Assembly (NCBI GenBank): GCA_963719425.1
Contig: OY970382.1
Location: 135,888-199,887, forward strand
Reading direction: 5' to 3'
Length of the DNA stretch: 64,000 bases
Source of the DNA: an uncultured bacterium
GTDB lineage: Bacteria > Patescibacteriota > Minisyncoccia > UBA6257 > 2-01-FULL-56-20
Positions within the stretch are counted from its first letter, which is position 1. Each line of letters begins with the position of its first letter. A program made the translations under genes and the position numbers. Below, piece after piece: positions 5,801 through 52,729 of the stretch. Under the pieces are notes generated by a model that was given only the letters and a program-made list of their open reading frames with translations, did no database searches and was not told where the DNA came from.

Positions 5801-7501
5801 ATGACGGCGGCCGAGGATAAAGAGTGTCAAAATTGCAAAGGGAAATTTTCAATTTTTCCCGACGATTTTGCTTTCTATGAAAAAATAAAAGTGCCGCCGC
5901 CGACGTGGTGTCCGGAGTGCCGGATGCAGAGAAGATTGGCGTGGCGGAATGATTTTACTTTTTACAATCGTACGTGTGATCTCTGCGGCAGGGACATAAT
6001 TTCGGTGTATGCCCCCAATAATCCTCAGACTATTTATTGCAATACGTGTTGGTGGGGCGACAAATGGGATGCAAAGCAGTATGGAATGGAATTTGACTTT
6101 ACCAAGCCGTTTTTTGAGCAATACCGAGTTTTGCGAGAGAAGGTTCCAGCGCTAGCATTGGTGAACGACAACGGAATCGGGAGCGTAAACAGCGAATATA
6201 TGCAGAATGTTGAGTTTAGCAAGAACTGCTACATGGCGATGGTGGCGTGGAAACTAGAAAATTGTCTGTATTCCAGTTATGGCGTGGAAGCAAAGGATGC
6301 TGTGGATTGTATGGGAATGTTGGGCAATAACGAGAGAACGTACGAATTGATGTACTCCGAAAAATGTTATGGGTGTCGTAATGTTTATAATTGCGCGTCA
6401 TTAATCGATTGCGCGTTCTGTTATGATTGCCACAACTGTGAGCATTGCTTTATGTCAGCCGGATTGCGGAATAAGAAATTCTGCTTTCGGAACCGGCAGT
6501 ATGCCGAGGACGAGTACAAAAAGATTGTTGACTCCTATGCGCTCCATTCCTGGTTTGGCAGCGAGCGTGCCAGGGAAGAGTTTGAAAAATTCATTCTCAA
6601 ATATCCACGGAAGTTCGCGTACCTCAAAAACTGTGTGAACTGTACGGGCGACAACCAATTCAATGCGAAAAATGCCCACTGGGTTTTTCACGCCCGTCGT
6701 ACCGAAAACAGCAAGTATCTTGAAAACGGCGATACCCAAATTGACAGCTACGATTTAAGCGTTGGGGGTGAGTTGGAGCAGTGTTACGAAGGGATCACCC
6801 CCGATCACTCACATCGTGCGTTCTTCACTATTTATACTTGGAAAAGCACCGATGCGATCTACTGCGAATTTTGTCAGTCTTCTCATAACCTTTTCGGCTG
6901 TGTTGGATTGAAGAGCGCTGAGTATTGCATTTTGAACAAAACATACTCGAAGGAGGAGTATTTCGATCTGCGTTCTAGAATAATTGAGCATATGAGAAAA
7001 ACAGGAGAGTGGGGTGAGTTTTTTCCAATGAATCTCTCTCCGTTCGGCTATAACGAAACAATGGCGCAGATGTCTTTTCCCTTGAGCAAAAAAGAGGCCA
7101 TACGAAGAGGATTGAGGTGGCAAGACAATATTCAGCAAACCACAGGAAAGGAGACCATGAGGTGGAACGATGTGCCTGATTCAATCCGCGATATCCAGGA
7201 TTCTATTTTGAACGAGATTCTGCTGTGTCAGAAATGTCATAGGAATTTCCGGGTTGTTCAATCGGAGTTGGAGTTTTATAGAAAAAACGATATTCCAATT
7301 CCGAGGATTTGTTTTTATTGCCGGTTAGCCGCGCGTTTTGCGTTGCGAACCCCGTCAAAACTTTGGAAGCGGCAATGTATGTGTGATAAAAACCACCCGC
7401 ATCATGCCGGGCAGTGCTTGAATAAATTTGAAACACCTTATGCTCCTAGCCGCCCCGAGGTCGTGTACTGCGAGCAGTGCTACCAGGCAGAGGTGGCATA
7501 G
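5801..7501 (+). CDS. large Cys-rich protein, paralog 1 of an undescribed family (bipartite zinc-ribbon modules)
   Basis: 566 aa. N-terminal CQNCKGKFSIFPDDFAFYEKIKVPPPTWCPECR. Central CxxC/CxGC-dense region. C-terminal CQKCHRNFRVV...FYRKNDIPIPRICFYCR ... SYAPSRPEVVYCEQCYQAEVA. Paralogs at 44325 and 46122. Confidence 0.8.
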   Translation: MTAAEDKECQNCKGKFSIFPDDFAFYEKIKVPPPTWCPECRMQRRLAWRNDFTFYNRTCDLCGRDIISVYAPNNPQTIYCNTCWWGDKWDAKQYGMEFDFTKPFFEQYRVLREKVPALALVNDNGIGSVNSEYMQNVEFSKNCYMAMVAWKLENCLYSSYGVEAKDAVDCMGMLGNNERTYELMYSEKCYGCRNVYNCASLIDCAFCYDCHNCEHCFMSAGLRNKKFCFRNRQYAEDEYKKIVDSYALHSWFGSERAREEFEKFILKYPRKFAYLKNCVNCTGDNQFNAKNAHWVFHARRTENSKYLENGDTQIDSYDLSVGGELEQCYEGITPDHSHRAFFTIYTWKSTDAIYCEFCQSSHNLFGCVGLKSAEYCILNKTYSKEEYFDLRSRIIEHMRKTGEWGEFFPMNLSPFGYNETMAQMSFPLSKKEAIRRGLRWQDNIQQTTGKETMRWNDVPDSIRDIQDSILNEILLCQKCHRNFRVVQSELEFYRKNDIPIPRICFYCRLAARFALRTPSKLWKRQCMCDKNHPHHAGQCLNKFETPYAPSRPEVVYCEQCYQAEVA

Positions 7502-7541
7502 GGCGACGCATTAAAAAGCTTGATTTGCTAGAATTAAGGCA

Positions 7542-9947
7542 ATGCTCGGCTTTTACATATTTTTGTCCGTTGTCGTTGCCGCCGTCGCGGGCACAGCGAT
7601 CTATTTTATTTTTCGCTCGCTCGCGCGGCGAAGGATAGCGCTGTCCTTGAGCACTTCGGTTTTTCTCATCAAAATTCCGAAGCCAGCCGGGGGATCGGAG
7701 GCCACTCCCGGAGGCTCGGAGAATAAGGATTTCAAGGCGGAACTCGCGCACTTTGAGCAGCTTTTAGGAAGCTTGGCGGCGATCAAGAAACCGTTCACGT
7801 TTGAAGTTGCTGTCCCGCATGTAGGAGAAGAGATCCACTTTTACCTTACCGTGCCGAAACTGTCTTCAGAAGTGGCTGCGAAACAGGTCTTGGGTCTGTG
7901 GAGCGGCGCCTCGGTGGAACGGGTGACAGACGATTTCAATATTTTCAATCCGCACGGCGAGGCTGTCGCGGCGTTCGTAAAGCAGAAGGAGCACTATGGG
8001 CTTCCCATGCGTACCTATAACGAACTCGGCATTGATTCGTTTGAGCCCATCGTGGGCGCGCTCGCGAAGATAAACGAGATCGGCGAGGGGGCAGCGGTGC
8101 AGGTCATCATGCAGCCCGCGCCTGCGGGAACAAAGAAAGAGGTGCAACGCGCAATAGAGCGTTTGAAAAGGGGCGAGCCGTTCAAAAAAGTGTTTCGGAG
8201 CGATTTCATGCGCTCACTCTCCGAGCCGGGGGAGATTTTGAATCCGAAGACCAAAGAGAAAAAAACGGAGGAGAAGCAGGAGCGCGTGGTAGACGAAGAG
8301 GCGGCGAAGGCGCTCCAGGCGAAGATCATGAAGCCGCTTTTCTTTGTAAACGTGCGGCTCGTCGCCTCGGCGGGGTCGCAATTCCAGGCGAATGATATTT
8401 TGGACGGGCTTGCCGCCGGATTCAGCCAGTTTGGGAGTCCTACGCGGAACGATCTCCGAGTGATAAAACCGCGGAACTCCGACAAGCTCATCCGCAAATT
8501 CATCTTCCGTGAATTTGACGCGTCGCAATCCATGACGCTTTCCAGCGAAGAGATCGCGAGCTTTTATCATTTGCCGATCTCGTCTACCGAAACGCCGCAC
8601 GTGAAGTGGCTCAAGTCAAAAGAAGCGCCGCCGCCGGAAAACCTCGCCAAACAAGGAGCGCTCCTCGGCTACAGCAATTTCCGCGGGGAATCAAGACCTA
8701 TTTACATCACGGACGAGGACCGACGCCGCCACATCTACGTGATCGGGCAGACCGGCACCGGGAAGACCACGGAGATTTCAAGCATGCTCATTGAGGATAT
8801 CCAGGCGGGCAAAGGCGTCGCGATCATTGATCCGCACGGGGAGTTCGCGGAGAAAGCGCTCGCCAAGGTGCCGAAGGAACGCGTTGAGGACGTGATCTAT
8901 TTTGACCCAAGCGACCTTGCGCGGCCCATGGGCATCAACATGCTTGATTACAATTTCAGCCGACCGGAGGAGAAAACGTTCATCGTGAACGAGCTTTTGG
9001 GAATTTTTGACAAATTGTATGACCTGAAGACCACGGGCGGTCCGATGTTTGAGCTCTATATGCGCAATGCTCTTCTTCTTCTTATGGAAGACATGCCGAA
9101 CGAGGAGGCGACCCTGATTGAGGTGCCCCGCATTTTCACGGACACTGCGTATCGCGTGCGGAAGCTTGAACGTATCCAGAATCCTACCGTCATTGATTTC
9201 TGGGAAAAGGAGGCGATCAAGACAAGCGGCGAGCAGTCGCTCGCCAACATGGCGGTGTACGTGAGCTCAAAGTTCACCGCCTTCATCTCTAACGACTACA
9301 TGCGGCCGATCATCGGCCAACCGAAGTCGGCGTTCAATTTCCGCGATGCGATGGACAACGGGAAGATTTTACTCATCAACCTTTCAAAAGGGAAGATAGG
9401 CGACCTCAACGCCAACCTGCTCGGCATGATCTTCATCGGGAAGATTTTGATGGCGGCCCTCTCGCGCGTGGAGATCGCGGATGAGTCAAAGCGCCGTGAC
9501 TTTTACCTCTATATTGACGAGTTCCAAAATTTCGCCACCGAGGCGGTTGCGACTATCCTTTCCGAGGCGCGCAAATATCATTTGAGCATGACGATGGCGC
9601 ACCAATTTATCGCGCAGCTTAAAGAGAATATCCGCGATGCCGTCTTCGGCAACGTGGGAACCCAGCTCATATGCCGCGTGGGACCGCAGGACGCGGAATT
9701 CCTCGTGAAGCAATTTGAGCCGGTATTCAACAAGAACGACCTTATCAGTATTGATAATCTGAACGCGTTTGTGCGGCTTCTCGTGAACGGCCAGACCTCG
9801 CGCCCGTTCAATATGAAGATGAACACGTCGTCGTGGGCGCCTGGCAATGCCGAACTCGCCGCGAAGCTCAAAGAGTATTCACGCATAAAGTTCGGACAGG
9901 ACAGGCAGGTGATAGAAGACGAGATCTATCGGCGCCTGCGGGAGTAG
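7542..9947 (+). CDS. membrane-anchored P-loop ATPase, type IV coupling protein-like (VirD4/TraD/FtsK-HerA superfamily)
   Basis: N-terminal TM helix. Walker A IYVIGQTGTGKTT. Walker B FYLYIDEFQNF. C-terminal AHQFIAQL motif resembling T4CP. No other T4SS genes nearby. Confidence 0.55.
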   Translation: MLGFYIFLSVVVAAVAGTAIYFIFRSLARRRIALSLSTSVFLIKIPKPAGGSEATPGGSENKDFKAELAHFEQLLGSLAAIKKPFTFEVAVPHVGEEIHFYLTVPKLSSEVAAKQVLGLWSGASVERVTDDFNIFNPHGEAVAAFVKQKEHYGLPMRTYNELGIDSFEPIVGALAKINEIGEGAAVQVIMQPAPAGTKKEVQRAIERLKRGEPFKKVFRSDFMRSLSEPGEILNPKTKEKKTEEKQERVVDEEAAKALQAKIMKPLFFVNVRLVASAGSQFQANDILDGLAAGFSQFGSPTRNDLRVIKPRNSDKLIRKFIFREFDASQSMTLSSEEIASFYHLPISSTETPHVKWLKSKEAPPPENLAKQGALLGYSNFRGESRPIYITDEDRRRHIYVIGQTGTGKTTEISSMLIEDIQAGKGVAIIDPHGEFAEKALAKVPKERVEDVIYFDPSDLARPMGINMLDYNFSRPEEKTFIVNELLGIFDKLYDLKTTGGPMFELYMRNALLLLMEDMPNEEATLIEVPRIFTDTAYRVRKLERIQNPTVIDFWEKEAIKTSGEQSLANMAVYVSSKFTAFISNDYMRPIIGQPKSAFNFRDAMDNGKILLINLSKGKIGDLNANLLGMIFIGKILMAALSRVEIADESKRRDFYLYIDEFQNFATEAVATILSEARKYHLSMTMAHQFIAQLKENIRDAVFGNVGTQLICRVGPQDAEFLVKQFEPVFNKNDLISIDNLNAFVRLLVNGQTSRPFNMKMNTSSWAPGNAELAAKLKEYSRIKFGQDRQVIEDEIYRRLRE

Positions 9948-14365: not shown

Positions 14366-15016
14366 TTGAGGCAATACAAGGCGCACCGGCGCAACAATAA
14401 AAGACTTATGTGCTGCCCGACAAGGCGAGAAGAGGTTTTCTGTGCGCGCTCTGAACGTACTGAACCTACCACAGTGAGGCTTCACAAGCATCCTTTGGGG
14501 TCATTTTGAAAAATGAAAACAGCTCTCAGTAGCGTCCGTTATAAGGGGTTTTCAAGGAGCTTTGAGGGGTACAAACTGGACAAAGCGGACTCTATAGGGG
14601 CATTCCGGACGCGTCCGGTTTGACTGATTAAAAAAATTGTCGTCTTGTATTGGATGATGATATTGAGGACAGAAGAGACTGCCGCGAAGGGTACGACTTG
14701 CCTTTATATGCATAAGCCGTTCCGGCAATCTACATCTTACGGCTTGGTATGCGGCTTTATGATAGAAAAAAGAATATACTTGAAACAAGACGATATTGAT
14801 AAAAAGGATTTTACGGATAAGGCCGACGCATCGAACGGAAGCGAATATGCGATCGGAGAAAAGGAAGACCAATTCGACGGGACGGATTTGCCACTGCCAC
14901 GACCATTGAAATCGCCATAAAATGGACATTGTACATCTCAATCTGCAGGAAAATATATCATGAATCTATGGGTTTAATCGGCTTAGAGATTGGCAACTAC
15001 AGAAATCTCAATAGCA

Positions 15017-18000
15017 ATGAAAAGAAAAAATAAGAGAAAATTAAAAGAAAGTTGGAAAGCTATAGCAGGAATTGCGGTTATAGTAGGAATTCTTGAGGCC
15101 GTAGATGTATTTGCGGGAATTAATTTCAATAACTTCCCTCAGTGGGTCGTAGCCGAATGTGTCAAAAAGAATTACCCACTATGTGGTAACACTATAACTG
15201 TTCAAGCTATATGTCTTCTTGCTTCCATACTCTTAATACTCGGCATAATAGAACTTATTTCGGCTTCTTTAAAACAAAACAGAAAATATTTTGAATTAGT
15301 CGATTTCGAAAAACCAACTGGTGAAGTCAGAAGAGAGGCGCTTGAGGGAATCCTGAATTCAGAAAAAGCCAAGCCCTCGTTTGTGCATGTCGCCCCAATC
15401 AGTGAAGAAGTTGAGAGCTCTTTTAAGAAACTGGACAAAGAGGGCTTTCTTTGGATAAGCGGCAGGCCGGGTGAGGGGAAAACCATGCTGGCTTATCATG
15501 TTCTTTATAAATTCTTTAAGCAAGGATACAAAATCTATGAGCTTAAGACCGATCTCATCAATAAAGACCTTGTCAGTGACGAAAAGAAACTTGAACAGAT
15601 AGTCGGTGAATTAGATATTTTAAAGGGAGGCAAGAGAAAAATAATATTGATTGACGACGCGCATAAGCTTGAGCCGAAGTTTGAAGATGGCCTAATGTCT
15701 GAAATTAGAGATGAAGCAGAAGAAAAAATAAATGGAAAATTTTTTGGGATAGACACGAATTATTTGGGAACAAAGGAATTAGACCAATCCAGTTCAATCG
15801 CTCTTAACTTCGACGAATTTTACAAGACGACGTTTTTTAAAAAATTATACCAATCCGAAGACCCATTAATAAAAGAGGTTGTCGAAAATAGATGCATCAA
15901 TCTAGAGGGGGCGATTAAGCAAAAGGAAGTGGATCACGAAATAAAAGACCCGTGGCATTTTAACTTTATCGCTACCAAGGGAGAAGAAAGAATAACCGAG
16001 GCGTTAAACGACCTTGGCGGCGGGAATGAAGCAAAACGCAGAATATTAAGAATAGCAATATTTTTATTCTCGGTTCGGAATATAATTACGGGAGAAAAAG
16101 AAATTACCGAAATCGATTTTATTGATAAGGTGTTGCCAACTATCAATAATGAGTACGTTTATAATCCTTATCAGTCCGATCCCCTTAAGATAATCATTGA
16201 TTTAGTTCAGGAGAATCGCAGATTATTGATTATTAACGACGAAAGTTCCTTTCAGAGGAATCTCTTGAAAGCACCGCACTACAGATCGTCCATCGCAATT
16301 GTTAAACGGCTTACTGAACTATGTGACGAAAATGAAGTAGAGCGGATGATTGATGCCTCCAAGATATTTCTTAAAAACGATTATAAGGACAGCGCGTATC
16401 TCGGCGTTTATTTTTCCTCAATCGGAAAGTATCAAACGTATTTTCTTAACGAAAATAAGAACTGGGTTAAGGGCTTTTTGACCAACGTAATTGTTGAGCA
16501 ACTTCAAGTTTATCCCTTTTTCTTGAACATTCTGAGAGAGTATCATGAAGAATTTTTTAGAAAATTGATCACCGACGAATATTTTGATACTATTGCCCCT
16601 GAAATATCATCGTCTAGTGCCAATAAATTTAGCGCAATTGCGGCTTTCCTTACGGCTTTGAAAGACAAGAGGGGCGAACTTATCGGCAGATTGAACTTTG
16701 AAAAACTGGCTGAAGTGGCCAATAAGGCCGGGGCGGATCAACTCTCACAAGTAGCGGAATTCCTTGGAGCTTTGAAAGACAAGAGGGGCGAACTTATCGG
16801 CAGATTGAGCTTTGAAAAACTGGCTGGAGCGGCCAATAAGGCAACGGTGTATCAACTCAAGCAAGTAGCGGCTTTCCTTACGGCTTTGAAAGACAAGAGG
16901 GGCGAACTTATCGGCAGATTGAACTTTGAAAAACTGGCTGAAGTGGCCAATAAGGCCGGGGCGGATCAACTCTCACAAGTAGCGGAATTCCTTGGAGCTT
17001 TGAAAGACAAGAGGGGCGAACTTATCGGCAGATTGAGCTTTGAAAAACTGGCTGGAGCGGCCAATAAGGCCGGAGTGGACCAACTCGAACAAGTAGCGAA
17101 CTTTCTTCAAACATTGGGAAACGAGAGAAATAAACTCGTTGAGAAATTTGACTTTGAAAAACTGGCTGGAGCGGCCAATAAGGCAACGGTGTATCAACTC
17201 AAGCAAGTAGCGGCTTTCCTTACGGCCTTGGAAGACAAAAAGGGCGAACTTATCGGCAGATTGGACTTTGAAAAACTGGCCGAAGCGGCCAATAAGGCCG
17301 GAGTGGAGCAATTCGCGCAACTCGAAGCGATTTTAAATGTATTGGGAAACGAGAGAAACAAACTCATTGAGAAATTTGACTTTGAAAAACTGGCTGGAGC
17401 GGCCAATAAGGCAACGGTGTATCAACTCAAGCAAGTAGCGGACCTTCTAGGAGCTTTAAAAGACAAGAGGAAGAAACTTTCGCAATATTTCGTCACTGAA
17501 GTCATTTTACGTTATTCTAAATTATTAGGTAGAGATCAAATCCCTTCTTTTTGTATAATAGTGGCAAATTTGGATAAGCAGAAAAAAAATCAAGTAATCC
17601 AAAACATCGACTGGGCTTCCTTATTAGACTTGACGCCTATCAATCATCCCGATATCATTAAGCATCTTTCTTATATCCTAGACTACCACAATACAAAGTG
17701 CAATTTGCTTAATCAAGATGCAAATGATAAAAGAATACGAGATTATTTAAGTATCAATAGGAATAAGATTATTTATTTTTCTACTTGTTTGTTCTCGCCA
17801 CCGGACGGTTATCAAAGCGCTGCATATGTTTTGGATGCATTATACCCGCACGCGATTGACATTTCTAAAACAATTGTTGGAAACCTGGAATATAAAATAA
17901 TAAGCCAATTTAAGATTTCGCCTCTTTATTACCATAGTTTTTCACATTTGCTTGATGCTATCCATCGAATTCACCCTCCAGCAAGCAACGCTATTCTTTC

Positions 18001-18184
18001 GGATCGCTTGGTTTGGGAAAAACTTTACAGCTCACTTCAAGAGGATGATTTTAAAGACCACCAATATGGATTACAAAACTTAATCAACTCCATAAAGACC
18101 ATAAATCCTATTGGATACAATGAAATTATTGCCAATAAGATTATAAATCAAAAACTTTTGATATGTCATATTTTGACACATTAG
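15017..18184 (+). CDS. membrane-anchored P-loop NTPase (STAND/AAA-like) with C-terminal 38-aa helical tandem repeats
   Basis: Two N-terminal TM helices. Walker A ISGRPGEGKTM. Walker B KIILIDDAH. Eight or more repeats of FEKLAxxANKAxxxQLxQVAxFLxALKDKRGELIGRL. AT-rich composition. ORF track start 14990 is TTG. First ATG at 15017 used. Confidence 0.75.
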   Translation: MKRKNKRKLKESWKAIAGIAVIVGILEAVDVFAGINFNNFPQWVVAECVKKNYPLCGNTITVQAICLLASILLILGIIELISASLKQNRKYFELVDFEKPTGEVRREALEGILNSEKAKPSFVHVAPISEEVESSFKKLDKEGFLWISGRPGEGKTMLAYHVLYKFFKQGYKIYELKTDLINKDLVSDEKKLEQIVGELDILKGGKRKIILIDDAHKLEPKFEDGLMSEIRDEAEEKINGKFFGIDTNYLGTKELDQSSSIALNFDEFYKTTFFKKLYQSEDPLIKEVVENRCINLEGAIKQKEVDHEIKDPWHFNFIATKGEERITEALNDLGGGNEAKRRILRIAIFLFSVRNIITGEKEITEIDFIDKVLPTINNEYVYNPYQSDPLKIIIDLVQENRRLLIINDESSFQRNLLKAPHYRSSIAIVKRLTELCDENEVERMIDASKIFLKNDYKDSAYLGVYFSSIGKYQTYFLNENKNWVKGFLTNVIVEQLQVYPFFLNILREYHEEFFRKLITDEYFDTIAPEISSSSANKFSAIAAFLTALKDKRGELIGRLNFEKLAEVANKAGADQLSQVAEFLGALKDKRGELIGRLSFEKLAGAANKATVYQLKQVAAFLTALKDKRGELIGRLNFEKLAEVANKAGADQLSQVAEFLGALKDKRGELIGRLSFEKLAGAANKAGVDQLEQVANFLQTLGNERNKLVEKFDFEKLAGAANKATVYQLKQVAAFLTALEDKKGELIGRLDFEKLAEAANKAGVEQFAQLEAILNVLGNERNKLIEKFDFEKLAGAANKATVYQLKQVADLLGALKDKRKKLSQYFVTEVILRYSKLLGRDQIPSFCIIVANLDKQKKNQVIQNIDWASLLDLTPINHPDIIKHLSYILDYHNTKCNLLNQDANDKRIRDYLSINRNKIIYFSTCLFSPPDGYQSAAYVLDALYPHAIDISKTIVGNLEYKIISQFKISPLYYHSFSHLLDAIHRIHPPASNAILSDRLVWEKLYSSLQEDDFKDHQYGLQNLINSIKTINPIGYNEIIANKIINQKLLICHILTH
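16630..17480 (+). repeat. in-frame coding tandem repeat (114-bp unit; two successive 228-bp copies are nucleotide-identical)
   Basis: Stretches such as CTTTCCTTACGGCTTTGAAAGACAAGAGGGGCGAACTTATCGGCAGATTG... recur exactly at about 16643 and 16871. Protein-level 38-aa repeat. Confidence 0.8.
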
Positions 18185-46121: not shown

Positions 46122-47903
46122 TTATGTCACCTCTGCCTGATAGCACTGCTCGCAGTACACGATCTCGGGGCGGTCGGGGGCATAGGAGGTTTGAAAACGA
46201 TTTGGACACGCTTTTTCTGAATGGAAATGGCGTACAGTATTTTTGTAGACTGAGTTATTTGCATGCAATCCTGCGCATTGACACTGTCTTTCAAAAAAGC
46301 GAGGGATGTTTCTTTGCCGCAAGCGCCCATAATGACGGCAGTTGGGGCAAAGCCGCGGGAGCGGGAGATGGAAGCGTTGCAAAAACGCCAATTCCTGCGG
46401 GATAATCCGGAAAGCCCCGGTGCATTCTTCCTCGCATTTCCCTTTGTGCGCGCAACCTATCACTTCTTTCAGGACGCTATCATCCATATCCGAAATTCGA
46501 TCCGCCAAATTCCCTGCCGCCTTCGTGGGCGCATAATCGCGTTTTTCCTCTTCACGCCAAGGCAGTTTTCTGGCCTCCGCCCACTCGCGGCTCCGCGGAT
46601 ACAATTCCTGCGCCTCGGAGATGTTGTACGGGAACGGAGAGAATTCCATCGGGAAAAATTCGCCGTAACGATGGATGCAACCCGCGGCATTTACATAGGG
46701 GACATCGTTCATATGTTTGACGATCTTGGGAACGAGAGTTGCATACTCTGCTTTGGAATATTGCTTGTTCAATATGCAATATTGTTTGTGGTGCAAATTC
46801 GCGCAGCCGAAAATATCCGTGGAACCCGGGCAATTTATCGAATATTCCACATTCTTGCAACCACCCCAGCAGTAGGCAGAGAATTTTACGTTATAGGTTT
46901 TGTTCCCGCATGTTATCGAGTCATAAATGAGTTCTGATGCGTCACCCCAGTTGGCGTAGTCGTAGCAATCCTTCGCTGGCCCCGCGAGCAGATTTACGCA
47001 GTACTTCACATCTTCCGCGCCGGTGACCCGATAACAGTAATGGGCGTTCTTAGAGTGATACACATAATCGCCGGATACGTTTAGGTTTTGAAGCCCCTGC
47101 ATGAATTTCACCGGGAATCTTAGCCACACCTCATTCGTCCGCTGCCGACATTTCTCGAACGCGCCGTAAGAGCCAAGGTCCAGCTCCCGAACCCGCGTTG
47201 CGTACTCCTCTTTGCGATAAGGGATATTGAAAATGCAGTATGATTTGCTGCGCAACCCAACGCATCCAACGCAGTCCGAGCAACCGACGCAATCTTTCGA
47301 AAAAAGCACATCGCGGCAGTCCTCGCAATTCATCGAGAAGAAGGTTTGATAACAGCGCGCCATATTCACATTTCCATAACAAAATTCGCAATGATTTGTC
47401 ATGTGGCTGTCTATGCAGTGCTTGGAGGATTCGTCCCAAATTACATATGCACAATCCTCCGTATGCGCCAACCCATGGGAAAAGTAGCAATTTTTGGAGA
47501 ATGAGGCATTCGCGCAATATTCGCAATTGGTTATGCTTTGTACGTTTGCATGGGGAAACGGCGTTTCGAGAAAGAGCTCGTGAACCTGCGCGAGAAATGG
47601 CCGCGACCAGTCTATTTCTCTTCCATATACTAACGGATCCCAGCCGTCGGAATGCCAAAAATCCTTATCGTAAATTTTTAGCGGCGATTCTGGGGGGACG
47701 AATGAGAGTATTTCCTGCCCGGTTCTCGTTTCCTGTCTTTTATACAGGTGCCACACGTTCCTCCATGCGAAGCGCCGCGCAGAGCGACATTCTGGACACC
47801 AGATAGGCGACGGTACCTTTATCTTCTCGTAAAACGCAAAATCCTCCGGCTCGATTGTGAACTGGTTCTCACAGTTCTGGCACACCCGCGTTTCCCGTTC
47901 CAT
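46122..47903 (-). CDS. large Cys-rich protein, paralog 3 (tandem pair)
   Basis: Start re-chosen at internal ATG (MERETRVCQNCENQFTIEPEDFAFYEKIKVPSPIWCPECR). Central DCVGCSDCVGCVGLRSKSYCIF. C-terminal ...SYAPDRPEIVYCEQCYQAEVT. 6 nt upstream of paralog 2. Confidence 0.8.
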   Translation of the reverse strand: MERETRVCQNCENQFTIEPEDFAFYEKIKVPSPIWCPECRSARRFAWRNVWHLYKRQETRTGQEILSFVPPESPLKIYDKDFWHSDGWDPLVYGREIDWSRPFLAQVHELFLETPFPHANVQSITNCEYCANASFSKNCYFSHGLAHTEDCAYVIWDESSKHCIDSHMTNHCEFCYGNVNMARCYQTFFSMNCEDCRDVLFSKDCVGCSDCVGCVGLRSKSYCIFNIPYRKEEYATRVRELDLGSYGAFEKCRQRTNEVWLRFPVKFMQGLQNLNVSGDYVYHSKNAHYCYRVTGAEDVKYCVNLLAGPAKDCYDYANWGDASELIYDSITCGNKTYNVKFSAYCWGGCKNVEYSINCPGSTDIFGCANLHHKQYCILNKQYSKAEYATLVPKIVKHMNDVPYVNAAGCIHRYGEFFPMEFSPFPYNISEAQELYPRSREWAEARKLPWREEEKRDYAPTKAAGNLADRISDMDDSVLKEVIGCAHKGKCEEECTGAFRIIPQELAFLQRFHLPLPRLCPNCRHYGRLRQRNIPRFFERQCQCAGLHANNSVYKNTVRHFHSEKACPNRFQTSYAPDRPEIVYCEQCYQAEVT

Positions 47904-47990
47904 TACCTCAATTCTACCAGAATAGGAAAAACCTACGCCTCTCGGTCTGCCCGGCACTCATATTTGTATGGTATCCTAGGAAAGAAACGG

Positions 47991-48293
47991 ATGAAATATA
48001 ACAAGCTTGTGCGCGACAAGATTCCCACATACATCCGCAAAAAAGGTGGGAAGCCAGTTTATCACGTGGCGACTCGAGCGGAGTACTGGAAGAAGTTGAA
48101 GGAAAAGCTGCACGAAGAGATCAAGGAATTTGTGCGGGACGAGAGTCCTGAGGAATTCGCCGATCTCCTTGAGGTGCTGGGTGCAATCGCAAATTACAAG
48201 AAATTTGACCGAAAGCGAATAGCAAAGCTGAGAGCAAAAAAGGTAAAGGAACGAGGACGGTTCGAGAAGCGAATCGTTCTTGACGAAGCTTAG
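47991..48293 (+). CDS. MazG/HisE-like NTP pyrophosphohydrolase (small all-alpha)
   Basis: 100 aa. EYWKKLKEKLHEEIKEF...EEFADLLEVL pattern of MazG-like house-cleaning enzymes. Confidence 0.5.
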   Translation: MKYNKLVRDKIPTYIRKKGGKPVYHVATRAEYWKKLKEKLHEEIKEFVRDESPEEFADLLEVLGAIANYKKFDRKRIAKLRAKKVKERGRFEKRIVLDEA

Positions 48294-50299: not shown

Positions 50300-52729
50300 A
50301 TGATAGACGAGAGAAAACAAACCATTCCTACCATTCTCGTGGTCCTGGGCGCCACGGGCGACCTTATGGCAAAAAAGATCGTGCCGGCGCTTTTTAATTT
50401 GCATGTGAAAAAGCGGTTGCCGCCAAGGTTCAAGCTCGTAGGTGTTTCAAGGCGCGCGTGGGGCGACGACGATCTCCGTACGCACCTCCGCACCATTCTT
50501 GAAAAGAGGACATCGCATGCCTCCGCCGCAACCATACGATCGTTCCTTGACCTTGCCGTGTATCATCGGTTGGTATTTGACTCGCCGAAGGACTACCTGG
50601 CACTCAACGATCTTTTAAAGAAGATTGACGACACGTGGGGCATGTGTGCGAACAAACTTTTTTATCTTTCGGTCCCGCCGCAGTTTTACTCGCTCATCCT
50701 TGCCCATCTGCACCGCAGTCATCTGACCGACGGCTGCGGCCCGAACGAGGGATGGACGCGCGTGATCGTGGAAAAGCCGTTCGGCAACGATGAAAAGAGC
50801 GCGAAAGCGCTTAATGCCCAACTTACAAAGCTCTTTCGGGAGGAACAAGTGTATCGGATAGATCATTATCTTGCGAAGGAGATGTTGCAGAATATTCTGA
50901 TGTTCCGGTTCGCGAACGATCTTTTCGAAAGCGAATGGACGAGCCGCACGCTAGAGAGCGTCCACATCCGCCTATTTGAGCAGATCGGCGTTGAGGGACG
51001 CGGTGCGTTCTACGATCATGTGGGCGCCTTGCAGGATGTGGGCCAGAACCATCTTTTGCAAATGCTCGCGCTCATTGCCATGGAGCGGCCCGTGCGGTAC
51101 GATGCTCACGCGATCCGCCCGCTCCGTGTGGAGCTTTTGAGGCACCTCATCGTTCAGACGCCCCGTGAGGCCGCCAAGAACTCGTTTCGCGCGCAATACG
51201 ACGGCTACCGCTCTATGGAAGGGGTTGCTCCCCATTCAAAAACCGAAACGTACTTTCGGATCAAGGGGTTTCTCTCTGGTGCGCGATGGGAAGGGATGCC
51301 GATTTTCATGGAAAGCGGGAAGCGACTCGGCGAGCCGCAGAAAGAGATTGAGATCGTGCTGCGCCACGAACAGCCCTGCCTTTGCGGAGGGAAAGAACAC
51401 CATCACAACCGTATTTTCATCAACCTTGAGCCTACGGAGGGGATAACGATCAGATTTCATTCAAAGAAGCCGGGACACACGTTTGAGTTCGAAGAACGGA
51501 CGTTGAACTTTGACTTCCGAGAATCGGTCCGTCGTGCACAGTATACCGAGGAGTACGAAAGGCTGATCTTGGACTGCATCGCGGGCGACCAGACACTCTT
51601 TGTTTCAAGTGAGGAGGTCGCCGCTATGTGGAAGTTCATAGACCCGTTCATCATTGCGTGGAAAAAGAACTTGGTTCCGCTGCGGTACTACGCGCCGGGC
51701 GGCCGTAAGATTGTCGCTGAAGCGGCGGTGTTTGATGATGCGGTGGAAAAAGACGGGACTCTAGCGCTTCCAAAGGAAATAGGCGTTTTTGGGCTTGGGA
51801 GGATGGGCGCGAACGTGGCGCGGCAGCTGCGCGATAAAGGATGGCGCGTCATCGCGGCCAATCGCTCGCCGGAGCCCTTGCAACAGCTGGAGAGCGAAGG
51901 TTTTGAAGCGGCGTATTCTCTCGCGGAACTCGCGGCGAAGCTCGCGGTGCCGCGAAGACATTCGCCGCGCGTGGTCTGGCTCATGATCACTGCCGGAAAA
52001 GGAGTGGACAAATTTCTCTTCGGGACTCGCGGCAAGGATGGCCTTGTGCCGCACCTTAAGAAAGGTGACATCGTGATAGACGCCGGCAACTCGTTTTTTG
52101 AGGACAGTGTGCGCCGCGCGAAACTCCTCGGCAAGCGCGGTATCCGGTTCGTGGATGTCGGCTTCTCGGGCGGCCCACGCGGTGCGCGCTACGGCGGCTC
52201 GCTCATGATCGGCGGCGACCGCAAAACATTTGAATATTTGGAGCCGCTCTTCGCCGACCTCTCCGTGCCCTTGGGCTACGCGTATTTCGGTGATGCGGGC
52301 GCAGGCCATTTCGTGAAGATGGTCCACAACGGCATTGAATACGGTATGATGCAGTCCTTGGCGGAAGGGTTCGCACTCATGAGGAAGTCGCCATTCAAGC
52401 TTGACCTTGAAAAGATTGCGCGCGTATATAACCGCGGCAGCGTCATTGAGTCGCGGCTCGTCGGATGGATGGAAGAAGTGTTCCGCATGTACGGCAAGGA
52501 TCTGCGTACGGTATCCGGCATCGTTCACGCGACCGGCGAAGGCGAGTGGACCATAAAAACCGGCCGCAAGTGGCGCGTGAAACTGCCGGCGATAGAAGAT
52601 GCATTCAAGTTCCGCACGCGTTCACAACGCGCGCCGAGCTATATGGGCCGAATTCTCTCCGCGCTCCGCAATCGCTTCGGCGGCCATGCGATAGGGGAAA
52701 AGAAAGAAACCAAAAACAAAAAAATATGA
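50300..52729 (+). CDS. zwf: fusion: glucose-6-phosphate dehydrogenase (N-terminal) plus 6-phosphogluconate dehydrogenase-like NAD-binding enzyme (C-terminal)
   Basis: N-terminal GATGDLMAKKIVPALFNL, EKPFGND, RIDHYLAKEMLQNIL. C-terminal from about residue 490 GVFGLGRMGANVARQL...GNSFFEDS...VGFSGGPRGARYGGSLMIGGD...HFVKMVHNGIEYGMMQ. Confidence 0.75.
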   Translation: MIDERKQTIPTILVVLGATGDLMAKKIVPALFNLHVKKRLPPRFKLVGVSRRAWGDDDLRTHLRTILEKRTSHASAATIRSFLDLAVYHRLVFDSPKDYLALNDLLKKIDDTWGMCANKLFYLSVPPQFYSLILAHLHRSHLTDGCGPNEGWTRVIVEKPFGNDEKSAKALNAQLTKLFREEQVYRIDHYLAKEMLQNILMFRFANDLFESEWTSRTLESVHIRLFEQIGVEGRGAFYDHVGALQDVGQNHLLQMLALIAMERPVRYDAHAIRPLRVELLRHLIVQTPREAAKNSFRAQYDGYRSMEGVAPHSKTETYFRIKGFLSGARWEGMPIFMESGKRLGEPQKEIEIVLRHEQPCLCGGKEHHHNRIFINLEPTEGITIRFHSKKPGHTFEFEERTLNFDFRESVRRAQYTEEYERLILDCIAGDQTLFVSSEEVAAMWKFIDPFIIAWKKNLVPLRYYAPGGRKIVAEAAVFDDAVEKDGTLALPKEIGVFGLGRMGANVARQLRDKGWRVIAANRSPEPLQQLESEGFEAAYSLAELAAKLAVPRRHSPRVVWLMITAGKGVDKFLFGTRGKDGLVPHLKKGDIVIDAGNSFFEDSVRRAKLLGKRGIRFVDVGFSGGPRGARYGGSLMIGGDRKTFEYLEPLFADLSVPLGYAYFGDAGAGHFVKMVHNGIEYGMMQSLAEGFALMRKSPFKLDLEKIARVYNRGSVIESRLVGWMEEVFRMYGKDLRTVSGIVHATGEGEWTIKTGRKWRVKLPAIEDAFKFRTRSQRAPSYMGRILSALRNRFGGHAIGEKKETKNKKI

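Follow-up and report, generated by a model that had tools for sequence, protein, structure and literature searches.

A large family of cysteine-rich proteins in Parcubacteria, with zinc-finger-like ends and a predicted twin solenoid, recurs beside a subset of orphan VirD4-type ATPases

A large part of the diversity of bacteria belongs to the Patescibacteria, also known as the candidate phyla radiation (CPR), whose lineage-specific proteins are for the most part without known function. A survey of 3,035 Patescibacteria genomes counted 5,713 VirD4-type homologues, of which only 148 were near virB4, and the authors left open what these proteins do (PMC12102498). Two named zinc-finger types, neither of them functionally characterised, are also relevant here. 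PF13451 (zf_Tbcl) is a 'probable treble clef domain', and PF23477/TIGR04272 (zf_Tbcl_2) is a ribbon with CxxC-x17-CxxC spacing. Small CxxC-x17-CxxC proteins of Methanosarcina mazei bind zinc, as determined by inductively coupled plasma mass spectrometry (PMC12704099). The present analysis concerns a 64,000-nucleotide (nt) stretch, hereafter the window, of contig OY970382.1 (assembly GCA_963719425.1, positions 135,888 to 199,887) from an uncultured Minisyncoccia bacterium, which carries three paralogous genes for large, Cys-rich proteins. They belong to a family whose two ends resemble these zinc-finger types and whose genes recur next to a conserved subset of VirD4-like ATPase genes.

A first-pass annotation of the window, made from its sequence alone, had described three open reading frames (ORFs) of one shared architecture. 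Alignment bears this out: the proteins, of 566, 596 and 593 amino acids (aa), align end to end (Table 1). Pairwise identities put by eye at 35–45% come to 36–46% (by alignment, 38% for paralogs 1 and 2 and 38% for paralogs 1 and 3; by tblastn, 46% for paralogs 2 and 3 and 36% for paralogs 1 and 2). The count of exactly three copies also stands, and tblastn of the whole window returned neither a fourth copy nor fragments beyond the three. The N-terminal, central, second-module and tail motifs that had been quoted were all found by alignment. CQNC..F.I.P.DF.FY.K..VP.P.WC..CR, R.A.RN and a second module near the C-terminus occur in all three proteins, and the tail reads ..YAP(D/S)RPE(I/V)VYCEQCYQAEV; DCVGCSDCVGC(T/V)GLR is found in paralogs 2 and 3, its counterpart in paralog 1 being DCAFCYDCHNCEHC..GLR. 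Paralogs 2 and 3 are encoded in tandem on the minus strand with 6 nt between them, a context which the annotation had missed together with the VirD4-like ATPase clusters described below. An alternative GTG start at position 47957 would extend paralog 3 to 611 aa; the ATG at 47903 is favoured because of the family alignment and a GAGGT 3 nt upstream.

The three paralogs are real protein-coding genes under purifying selection. The ratio of nonsynonymous to synonymous substitution rates (dN/dS) was 0.105 between paralog 3 and the body of a family gene in locus L007, from a metagenome-assembled genome (MAG) of a close Minisyncoccia relative, and 0.077 between paralog 2 and the body of a gene in locus L081, and no stop codons were present. 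The synonymous rate in the body comparison (dS 0.44) was the same as that of the flanking ATPase gene. The proteins contain 36, 38 and 40 Cys (6.4–6.7% of residues; mean of 166 family members 5.8%), so that they are indeed Cys-rich, 'extremely' having been a generous word. Their net charges are 0, +5 and -4. The absence of a signal peptide or transmembrane segment was borne out by hydropathy: no hydrophobic segment was found in paralogs 1–3, the maximum Kyte-Doolittle 19-residue mean being 1.24 or less, against 2.45 in the membrane-anchored ATPase next door. The family proteins are probably cytoplasmic.

An exhaustive search with a hidden Markov model (HMM) placed 4,988 clusters at 50% identity in the family, 2,131 of them with E ≤1e-30 and almost all 550–600 aa long. 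More than 7,300 clusters at 90% identity scored for either of two query sequences, and at least 545 genome loci carry family genes. The annotation had taken the family to be old and functionally constrained, which accords with this cluster count, with the deep divergence of the paralogs and with dN/dS values of 0.08–0.10. Among the best-scoring relatives, the clearly named sources are all of Parcubacteria/Paceibacteria type (Lipton-, Nomura-, Staskawicz-, Jorgensen-, Giovannoni-, Sung-, Niyogi-, Ryan- and Brennerbacteria and Minisyncoccia). Many of the closest homologues lie in MAGs labelled 'uncultured Candidatus Saccharibacteria' (L001, L004, L006 and others), and one locus (L041) is labelled Gammaproteobacteria; these labels are probably generic or wrong. 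One member of the representative library, P0330 (731 aa), is a divergent protein that appears by eye to be fused to an N-terminal GNAT-like acetyltransferase region and whose treble-clef knuckles have each lost their second Cys, a single case.

Source annotations are all 'hypothetical protein', save for one generic Joint Genome Institute label, 'YbaR/Trm112', and a literature search found no description of the family. Pfam and NCBIfam yielded nothing above threshold; below it, two 'probable treble clef' models matched the far N- and C-terminal ends. The family profile matched no PDB sequence at E up to 10, no fold in the PDB reached the threshold, and PADLOC profiles gave no match, so that no known family covers most of the length in Pfam, NCBIfam, PADLOC or the PDB. 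The sole PHROGs match was phrog_15341, of unknown function (E 2e-4 to 7e-3, over the M1 region described below), and tblastn found no family match in phage and plasmid collections. A phage, plasmid or defence-system origin found no support in the PADLOC, PHROGs and phage and plasmid searches. Judged by sequence comparison, the whole protein belongs to no described family, as the annotation had held. The two end modules, about one third of the protein, are a divergent variant of known zinc-finger types, which the annotation had not recognized; the remainder is without a detectable relative. The architecture is new, though some of its parts are known zinc modules and its genes are found amid known types of ATPase.

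The gene neighbourhood was surveyed in 80 family-centred loci from species-representative genomes, with 6 kb on either side (0.86 Mb in total, about one genome's worth). Fifty of these loci contain 2–7 family genes, and in each of the 74 tandem pairs the two genes point the same way, the median gap being 12 nt. Within an array, paralogs are 35–59% identical by region; they are as diverged as random family pairs, and their synonymous codons are barely more alike, so that the arrays appear old rather than recently amplified. The same comparison, of amino acids and of synonymous codons, led to rejection of pervasive gene conversion as the means by which the ends are kept alike. Over-long tblastn matches, for which inteins or introns were considered, proved to be adjacent tandem copies. 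The idea that the QAEV tail (GAG GTG) serves as a ribosome-binding site for the next gene was also discarded, GAG being used in 36% of cases as against 38% elsewhere, and Shine-Dalgarno-like motifs showed no excess in tandem pairs.

The commonest non-family neighbour was a cluster of proteins homologous to the window's own VirD4-like ATPase, found in 31 of the 80 loci, compared with 10 for the next most frequent neighbour. In this cluster, 38 genes encode an ATPase core of the VirD4/TraG/HerA type, and 13 proteins have DUF8128 only. A family gene is the immediate neighbour of 24 of the 38; adjacent pairs are co-directional in 30 of 30 cases, with a gap of 47 nt or less in 11. The published rate (PMC12102498) leads one to expect about two such ATPases per genome. 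A reverse test was made with a short ATPase of about 490 aa, the type found flanking family genes in the family-centred loci, which is 68–85% identical across several candidate phyla. In four of five contexts, drawn from Wolfe-, Giovannoni-, Jorgensen-, Brenner- and Ryanbacteria, 1–4 family genes (HMM E 1e-94 to 1e-248) lie just downstream of it. Clusters of this kind are the family's canonical setting, and their order is a sigma70_r4/HARE-HTH gene, a DUF8128 gene, a gene of about 180 aa, the short ATPase and 1–4 family genes, often followed by CutA1 and then by a second ATPase of about 625 aa. The second ATPase has a long C-terminal tail with a CxxC-x17-CxxC ribbon of the PF23477 type, for example CAHCGKQAKVPYKPDGRRPVYCTSC, the same type as that at the ends of the family proteins. 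Intact ribbons of this kind were found in four lineages (L167 11129..13000, L170 10019..11905, L030 3911..5911 and L061 7833..9995). No relaxase, VirB4 or channel genes were found in these clusters, and no strict pairing of one subfamily with one ATPase type was seen. The link between the family and this ATPase subset holds in both directions, with a small reverse sample, and is not universal. In the Giovannonibacteria locus L167, a gene for an IS200-like Y1 transposase (7538..8173, weak Pfam match) separates the short ATPase from the family gene.

The protein is laid out as Z, M, a helical insert, M', an alpha/beta region and Z'. Its internal duplications were established by profile-profile comparison (hhalign) of slices of a 41-sequence alignment, in paralog 2 numbering. 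The N-terminal module (residues 9–85) matches the C-terminal module (residues 497–593) at 98.6% (E 9e-16), in keeping with the duplicated zinc-ribbon/FY module of the first-pass annotation, and the central halves M1 (residues 128–232) and M2 (residues 278–384) match at 99.7% (E 4e-27). Across 166 sequences, the Cys of the first CxxC..CxxC pair of knuckles are conserved at 95–98%, and R40, R43, R44, R48, N49 and R56, which follow the treble clef, are invariant or nearly so. Paralog 1 alone among the three keeps both CxxC pairs of the second N-terminal ribbon (C59/C62/C80/C83), the Cys of which are lost in paralogs 2 and 3, and it alone has an uninterrupted CQKC in the C-terminal treble clef.

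For comparison with the known zinc fingers, consensus-like sequences were used to represent PF13451 and PF23477, and these scored 87.7 and 70.3 bits when checked against Pfam. The N module matches the PF13451–PF23477 pair at 96.4% (E 1e-9, 81 collinear columns) and the C module at 93.8% (E 2e-7). Against PF13451 alone, the N module reaches 95–96% (E 5e-9) and the C module 91–94%, with reversed controls at 3.2% or less; reversed controls for the PF13451 and combined representatives stayed at 5% or less. The best score against the PF13451 model itself was 16.6 bits (paralog 3, residues 5–44), compared with a gathering cut-off of 24 bits, and five of the 41 family members gave E ≤0.1 (best E 3.7e-4). 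CxxC knuckles about 24 residues apart, an F.F...E..FY core and a basic helix are present at both ends in all three paralogs. For PF23477/TIGR04272, residues 538–563 of paralog 1 scored 16.9 bits against a curated cut-off of 27 in Pfam (E 0.005) and 14 bits against 36 in NCBIfam. The N module of paralog 1 has the CxxC-x17-CxxC spacing exactly; in paralogs 2 and 3 the spacing is degenerate, and the C-terminal module has a modified form (CxC...CxxC). Each end is thus a divergent PF13451-like treble clef followed by a ribbon that appears to be of the PF23477 type. By analogy with the zinc-binding CxxC-x17-CxxC proteins of M. mazei (PMC12704099), the family may bind zinc at three to five sites.

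The centre had been described as studded with CxxC motifs. Such motifs are present, and the predicted build behind them is a duplicated narrow solenoid with a 3-residue Cys lattice. Up to lag 30, Cys autocorrelation in M1 over the same 166 sequences is positive whenever the lag is a multiple of 3 and otherwise negative; in M2 the main peak is at 9. The AlphaFold model of paralog 2 has a predicted template modelling score of 0.87 and a mean predicted local distance difference test score (pLDDT) of 83. The ends are confident and the Cys-free alpha/beta region reaches a pLDDT of 90–96; confidence is lower, at about 70, in M and M', where the strands are very short and evenly spaced. The PDB fold search found no match for the alpha/beta region. 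From periodicity and model, M and M' are predicted to be a narrow beta-solenoid in which inward-facing coil positions favour Cys. The last M1 coil is fully occupied (C204, C207, C210 and C213, at 78–96%), whereas its equivalent in M' keeps only two of these, and the last M1 coil perhaps holds one real metal site.

A solenoid of this kind, with 36–40 Cys per protein on a strict 3-residue lattice and a last M1 coil fully occupied by Cys, might be a thiolate column in a protein that handles metal, as a zinc or copper buffer, store or chaperone. CutA1, a gene for divalent-ion tolerance (about 100 aa), recurs next to genes of the family or of the ATPases, in line with such a role (7 of the 80 family-centred loci and two of the five ATPase-centred contexts, L167 and L169). 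Metal handling is nonetheless judged quite improbable. Lattice Cys outside the last coil are conserved at only 30–80%, and M2 has lost most of its Cys yet kept the sequence frame, as expected of small core residues and not of ligands. The role of CutA1 is itself unclear. An iron-sulfur or redox function is more doubtful still and is given very little credence. It would draw on the CxxCxxCxxC stretch of M1, which is well conserved and in paralog 1 has five Cys in a row. Its spacing is neither that of ferredoxins (CxxCxxCxxxCP) nor that of radical-SAM enzymes (CxxxCxxC), as the annotation had correctly noted; the motif is one turn of the periodic repeat and is absent from the duplicate M2, and no iron-sulfur family matched in Pfam or NCBIfam.

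The position of paralog 1 in the window was compared with 80 metagenomic loci (L086–L165) centred on orthologues of the window ATPase, nearly all full length and 49–74% identical. The ATPase, which matches phrog_5156 (unknown function, E 2e-79), starts 40 nt downstream of paralog 1, and no terminator-like site lies between them. The Pro-rich gene just upstream of paralog 1 had been proposed as a neighbour worth following for the family; it proved instead to be a conserved partner of the ATPase. A homologue precedes the ATPase in 16 of the 80 ATPase-centred loci, often after a divergent PMT-type glycosyltransferase gene, and L007 is the only one of the 80 family-centred loci to contain it, so that the gene was rejected as a family partner. 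In L086, L127 and L089, about 1–13 nt separate the Pro-rich stop codon from the ATPase start, and L093 is consistent with this. In the window and in L007, whose ATPase is 97% identical to that of the window, a family gene with a 40-nt trailer fills this junction. Paralog 1 is, by this gene order, a lineage-specific insertion between the Pro-rich gene and its partner ATPase, and the window's arrangement is atypical of the family.

The inserted gene is not the same in the two genomes. The flanks of L007 match the window at 86–91% nucleotide identity, and the body of its family gene (5992..7776) matches paralog 3 at 91% DNA identity, paralog 3 being about 40 kb away in the window on the other strand. 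In a three-way alignment the L007 gene is paralog-1-like through ...GTGCCGCCGCCGACGTGGTG, in the VPPPTWC motif, has a paralog-3-like body and is paralog-1-like again in the YCEQCYQAEV tail. Because the switches fall within the conserved end-coding segments (Table 1), these segments acted as recombination sites, and the slot beside the ATPase tolerates a body of the paralog 3 type. The swap, by reciprocal exchange or by gene conversion, is an occasional event. A search for its reciprocal product led to L081 and L082, which carry bodies close to paralog 2 (88% nt identity) and paralog 1 (76%), respectively, in unrelated contexts.

These observations bear on whether the family is a selfish or mobile gene that inserts into operons and thereby acquires multiple copies, variable locations and exchanged cassettes. 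Paralog 1 lies exactly where other loci have a junction of about 1–13 nt, orthologous bodies occur in unrelated contexts of close relatives (L081, L082), the body has been swapped in L007, and one array contains the IS200-like gene. Against this, copies within a genome are only 35–59% identical by region, no closer than random family pairs, and dN/dS is about 0.1. The insertion junctions show neither terminal repeats nor a target duplication, no nuclease, transposase or recombinase domain was found in the family with Pfam, NCBIfam or PHROGs, and the family is absent from the phage and plasmid collections. A mobile nature is accordingly held to be highly unlikely.

The function preferred here, tentatively, is that of a zinc-stabilised adaptor or cargo of orphan coupling-type ATPases. 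The protein would be a rigid body working with these ATPases. Docking on the ATPase, or on a ligand (possibly nucleic acid) shared with the ribbon of the ATPase, would fall to the two like zinc modules at the ends of the protein, and the twin solenoid would serve as a spacer. The diverged paralogs would have different specificities. They can also exchange bodies by recombination within the conserved end-coding segments. The link to ATPases is supported by paralog 1, which has independently been inserted directly upstream of another ATPase of the same superfamily.

Several points weigh against an ATPase partner. Descent alone can preserve conserved gene order in streamlined genomes, and the partnership is read from gene context, physical interaction being predicted only. 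The loci centred on window-ATPase orthologues contain a family gene in 0 of 80 cases (HMM and tblastn), and the reverse sample for the short ATPase numbers five. Paralogs 2 and 3, and three of four sampled paralog-1-type genes, have no ATPase within 5–6 kb; in the window no VirD4-like ATPase lies near paralogs 2 and 3. The acidic, zinc-folded C-terminus of the family is unlike the known signals of type IV substrates. With regard to the zinc modules, the Pfam models fall below their own gathering scores for the family, and the PF23477 ribbon taken alone is weak (hhalign 30–56%, short reversed control 13–21%). The geometry of the metal sites and the inward-facing Cys are deduced from Cys periodicity and not from measured coordinates.

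The same proximity to ATPases could be inherited gene order around a housekeeping nucleic-acid-binding zinc protein, such as an RNA or DNA scaffold or chaperone. The conserved Arg-rich helix after each treble clef, the placing of like modules at both ends of a rigid body and the strong purifying selection would suit such a protein, as would the many copies among translation, chaperone and secretion genes with no ATPase near and the presence of a sigma70_r4/HARE-HTH protein in the cluster. The near-zero net charge of the paralogs does not suit it, and the PDB sequence and fold searches gave no match to a known nucleic-acid-binding fold. It also leaves unexplained why close, same-strand pairing with ATPases recurs, why the second ATPase has the ribbon and why paralog 1 was independently inserted beside another ATPase. 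We regard this explanation as somewhat doubtful.

The adaptor or cargo function could also be part of something larger. The family, the two VirD4-like ATPases, DUF8128 and the small membrane and HARE-HTH proteins might constitute an unrecognised, Parcubacteria-specific machine whose ATPases act on the family, a proposal that we consider unlikely. The ATPases would then translocate or remodel the zinc/solenoid proteins, or use them as interchangeable specificity adaptors. The Cys-lined solenoid with 12-residue coils would be a new fold class, possibly with a column of metal ions, and body-swapping through the conserved ends would re-assort specificities.

Table 1. Features of the window and of related loci (coordinates are window positions; residues are those of paralog 1)
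Feature	Coordinates	Strand	Remarks
Paralog 1, 566 aa	5801..7501	+	Complete member of the short subfamily (about 555–565 aa)
Paralog 1 Z, residues 1–116	5801..6148	+	Treble clef C9/C12/C37/C40 with R..RR.A.RN helix; CxxC-x17-CxxC ribbon, then WW.D.WD helix
Paralog 1 M1, residues 117–238	6149..6514	+	3-residue Cys lattice; ends CAFCYDCHNCEHC..GLRNK
Paralog 1 M2, residues 284–386	6650..6958	+	Duplicate of M1, most Cys lost; ends FGCVGLK..YCILNKTYSKEEY
Paralog 1 alpha/beta region, residues 387–469	6959..7207	+	Cys-free; conserved GEFFP, SPFGYNE and W motifs
Paralog 1 Z', residues 470–566	7208..7498	+	Second treble clef C476/C479/C504/C507; CxC..H.H..C..YC..C ribbon, then invariant tail
5' recombination zone	5858..5922	+	Encodes ..FYEKIKVPPPTWCPEC..; L007 switches from paralog-1-like to paralog-3-like
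3' recombination zone	7427..7501	+	Encodes ..YAPSRPEVVYCEQCYQAEVA and stop; L007 switches back to paralog-1-like
Pro-rich gene, 142 aa	5366..5794	+	Conserved upstream partner of ATPase
VirD4/TraG/HerA-type ATPase, 801 aa	7542..9947	+	Membrane helix, DUF8128-homologous region, ATPase core; context gene
Paralog 2, 596 aa	44325..46115	-	Downstream gene of tandem pair; sequence used for structure model
Paralog 3, 593 aa	46122..47903	-	Upstream gene of tandem pair; length from ATG at 47903
CutA1-bearing loci			L025, L038, L046, L057, L069, L167, L169

Around paralogs 2 and 3, the window contains an ATP synthase epsilon gene and a small Pro_CA_2-like gene on one side and a DNA-repair gene on the other. 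The ORF at 47748..48293 (plus strand) is over-extended at its 5' end, its first approximately 50 codons being antisense to the conserved N-terminus of paralog 3, and it gave spurious 'homologues' in many loci; its true start is probably an internal ATG giving MKYNKLVRDK. Elsewhere in the window, a single ORF of 809 aa (50300..52729, plus strand) encodes a complete glucose-6-phosphate dehydrogenase (PF00479 and PF02781) fused to a second enzyme part, a 6-phosphogluconate-dehydrogenase-type domain pair (PF03446 and PF00393). The 1064-aa product of 14990..18184 (plus strand) has an nSTAND3/AAA NTPase domain and a weak PADLOC match (PDC-S73), and may be a defence-type STAND NTPase.

CPR genomes hold many unknown families, and this one stands out by its size, age, copy number and build. 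It is a large, ancient, multi-copy family under purifying selection and the commonest neighbour of a conserved subset of orphan coupling ATPases. These ATPases thereby gain a concrete, testable candidate partner, and one of them shares its zinc ribbon. About two-thirds of the protein, comprising the twin solenoid and the alpha/beta region, is without a detectable structural relative, which makes it a target for structural genomics and merits a domain-family entry.

Comparison with known systems gives likenesses of differing depth. The narrow, Cys-containing beta-helices of insect antifreeze proteins (1m8n) and of the ryegrass ice recrystallization inhibition protein (3ult) resemble the predicted solenoid in general shape only, as do left-handed beta-helix acyltransferases, bactofilin and curli. 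The beta-helix fold matches are at noise level, with identity below 10% and no sequence relation. Antifreeze proteins are secreted and disulfide-bonded, whereas the family has no signal peptide. PF13451 is closer, with CxxC-x24-CxxC, an F.F...EQ.FY-type core and, past the second knuckle, a helix rich in Arg/Lys; the family differs in carrying the domain, which in Pfam is without known function, twice and at opposite ends of a protein of approximately 590 aa. PF23477/TIGR04272 has the CxxC-x17-CxxC spacing of paralog 1 (C59/C62/C80/C83) and the ..P....P.(V/I)YC..C signature, is collinear with PF13451 at both ends and is also found on the tail of the neighbouring second ATPase. In the family, however, the C-terminal copy uses CxC...H.H..C...CxxC, and the N-terminal Cys are lost in paralogs 2 and 3. 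An analogy, and no more, is offered by proteins that type IV coupling proteins (VirD4/TraD/TraG) take as substrates or adaptors, such as relaxosome proteins or effectors with a conserved C-terminal recognition domain; the family has no sequence or fold similarity to a known substrate. The analogy lies in the position of the family genes beside VirD4-type ATPases and co-directional with them, in the several diverged paralogs per genome and in termini that are the most conserved parts of the protein.

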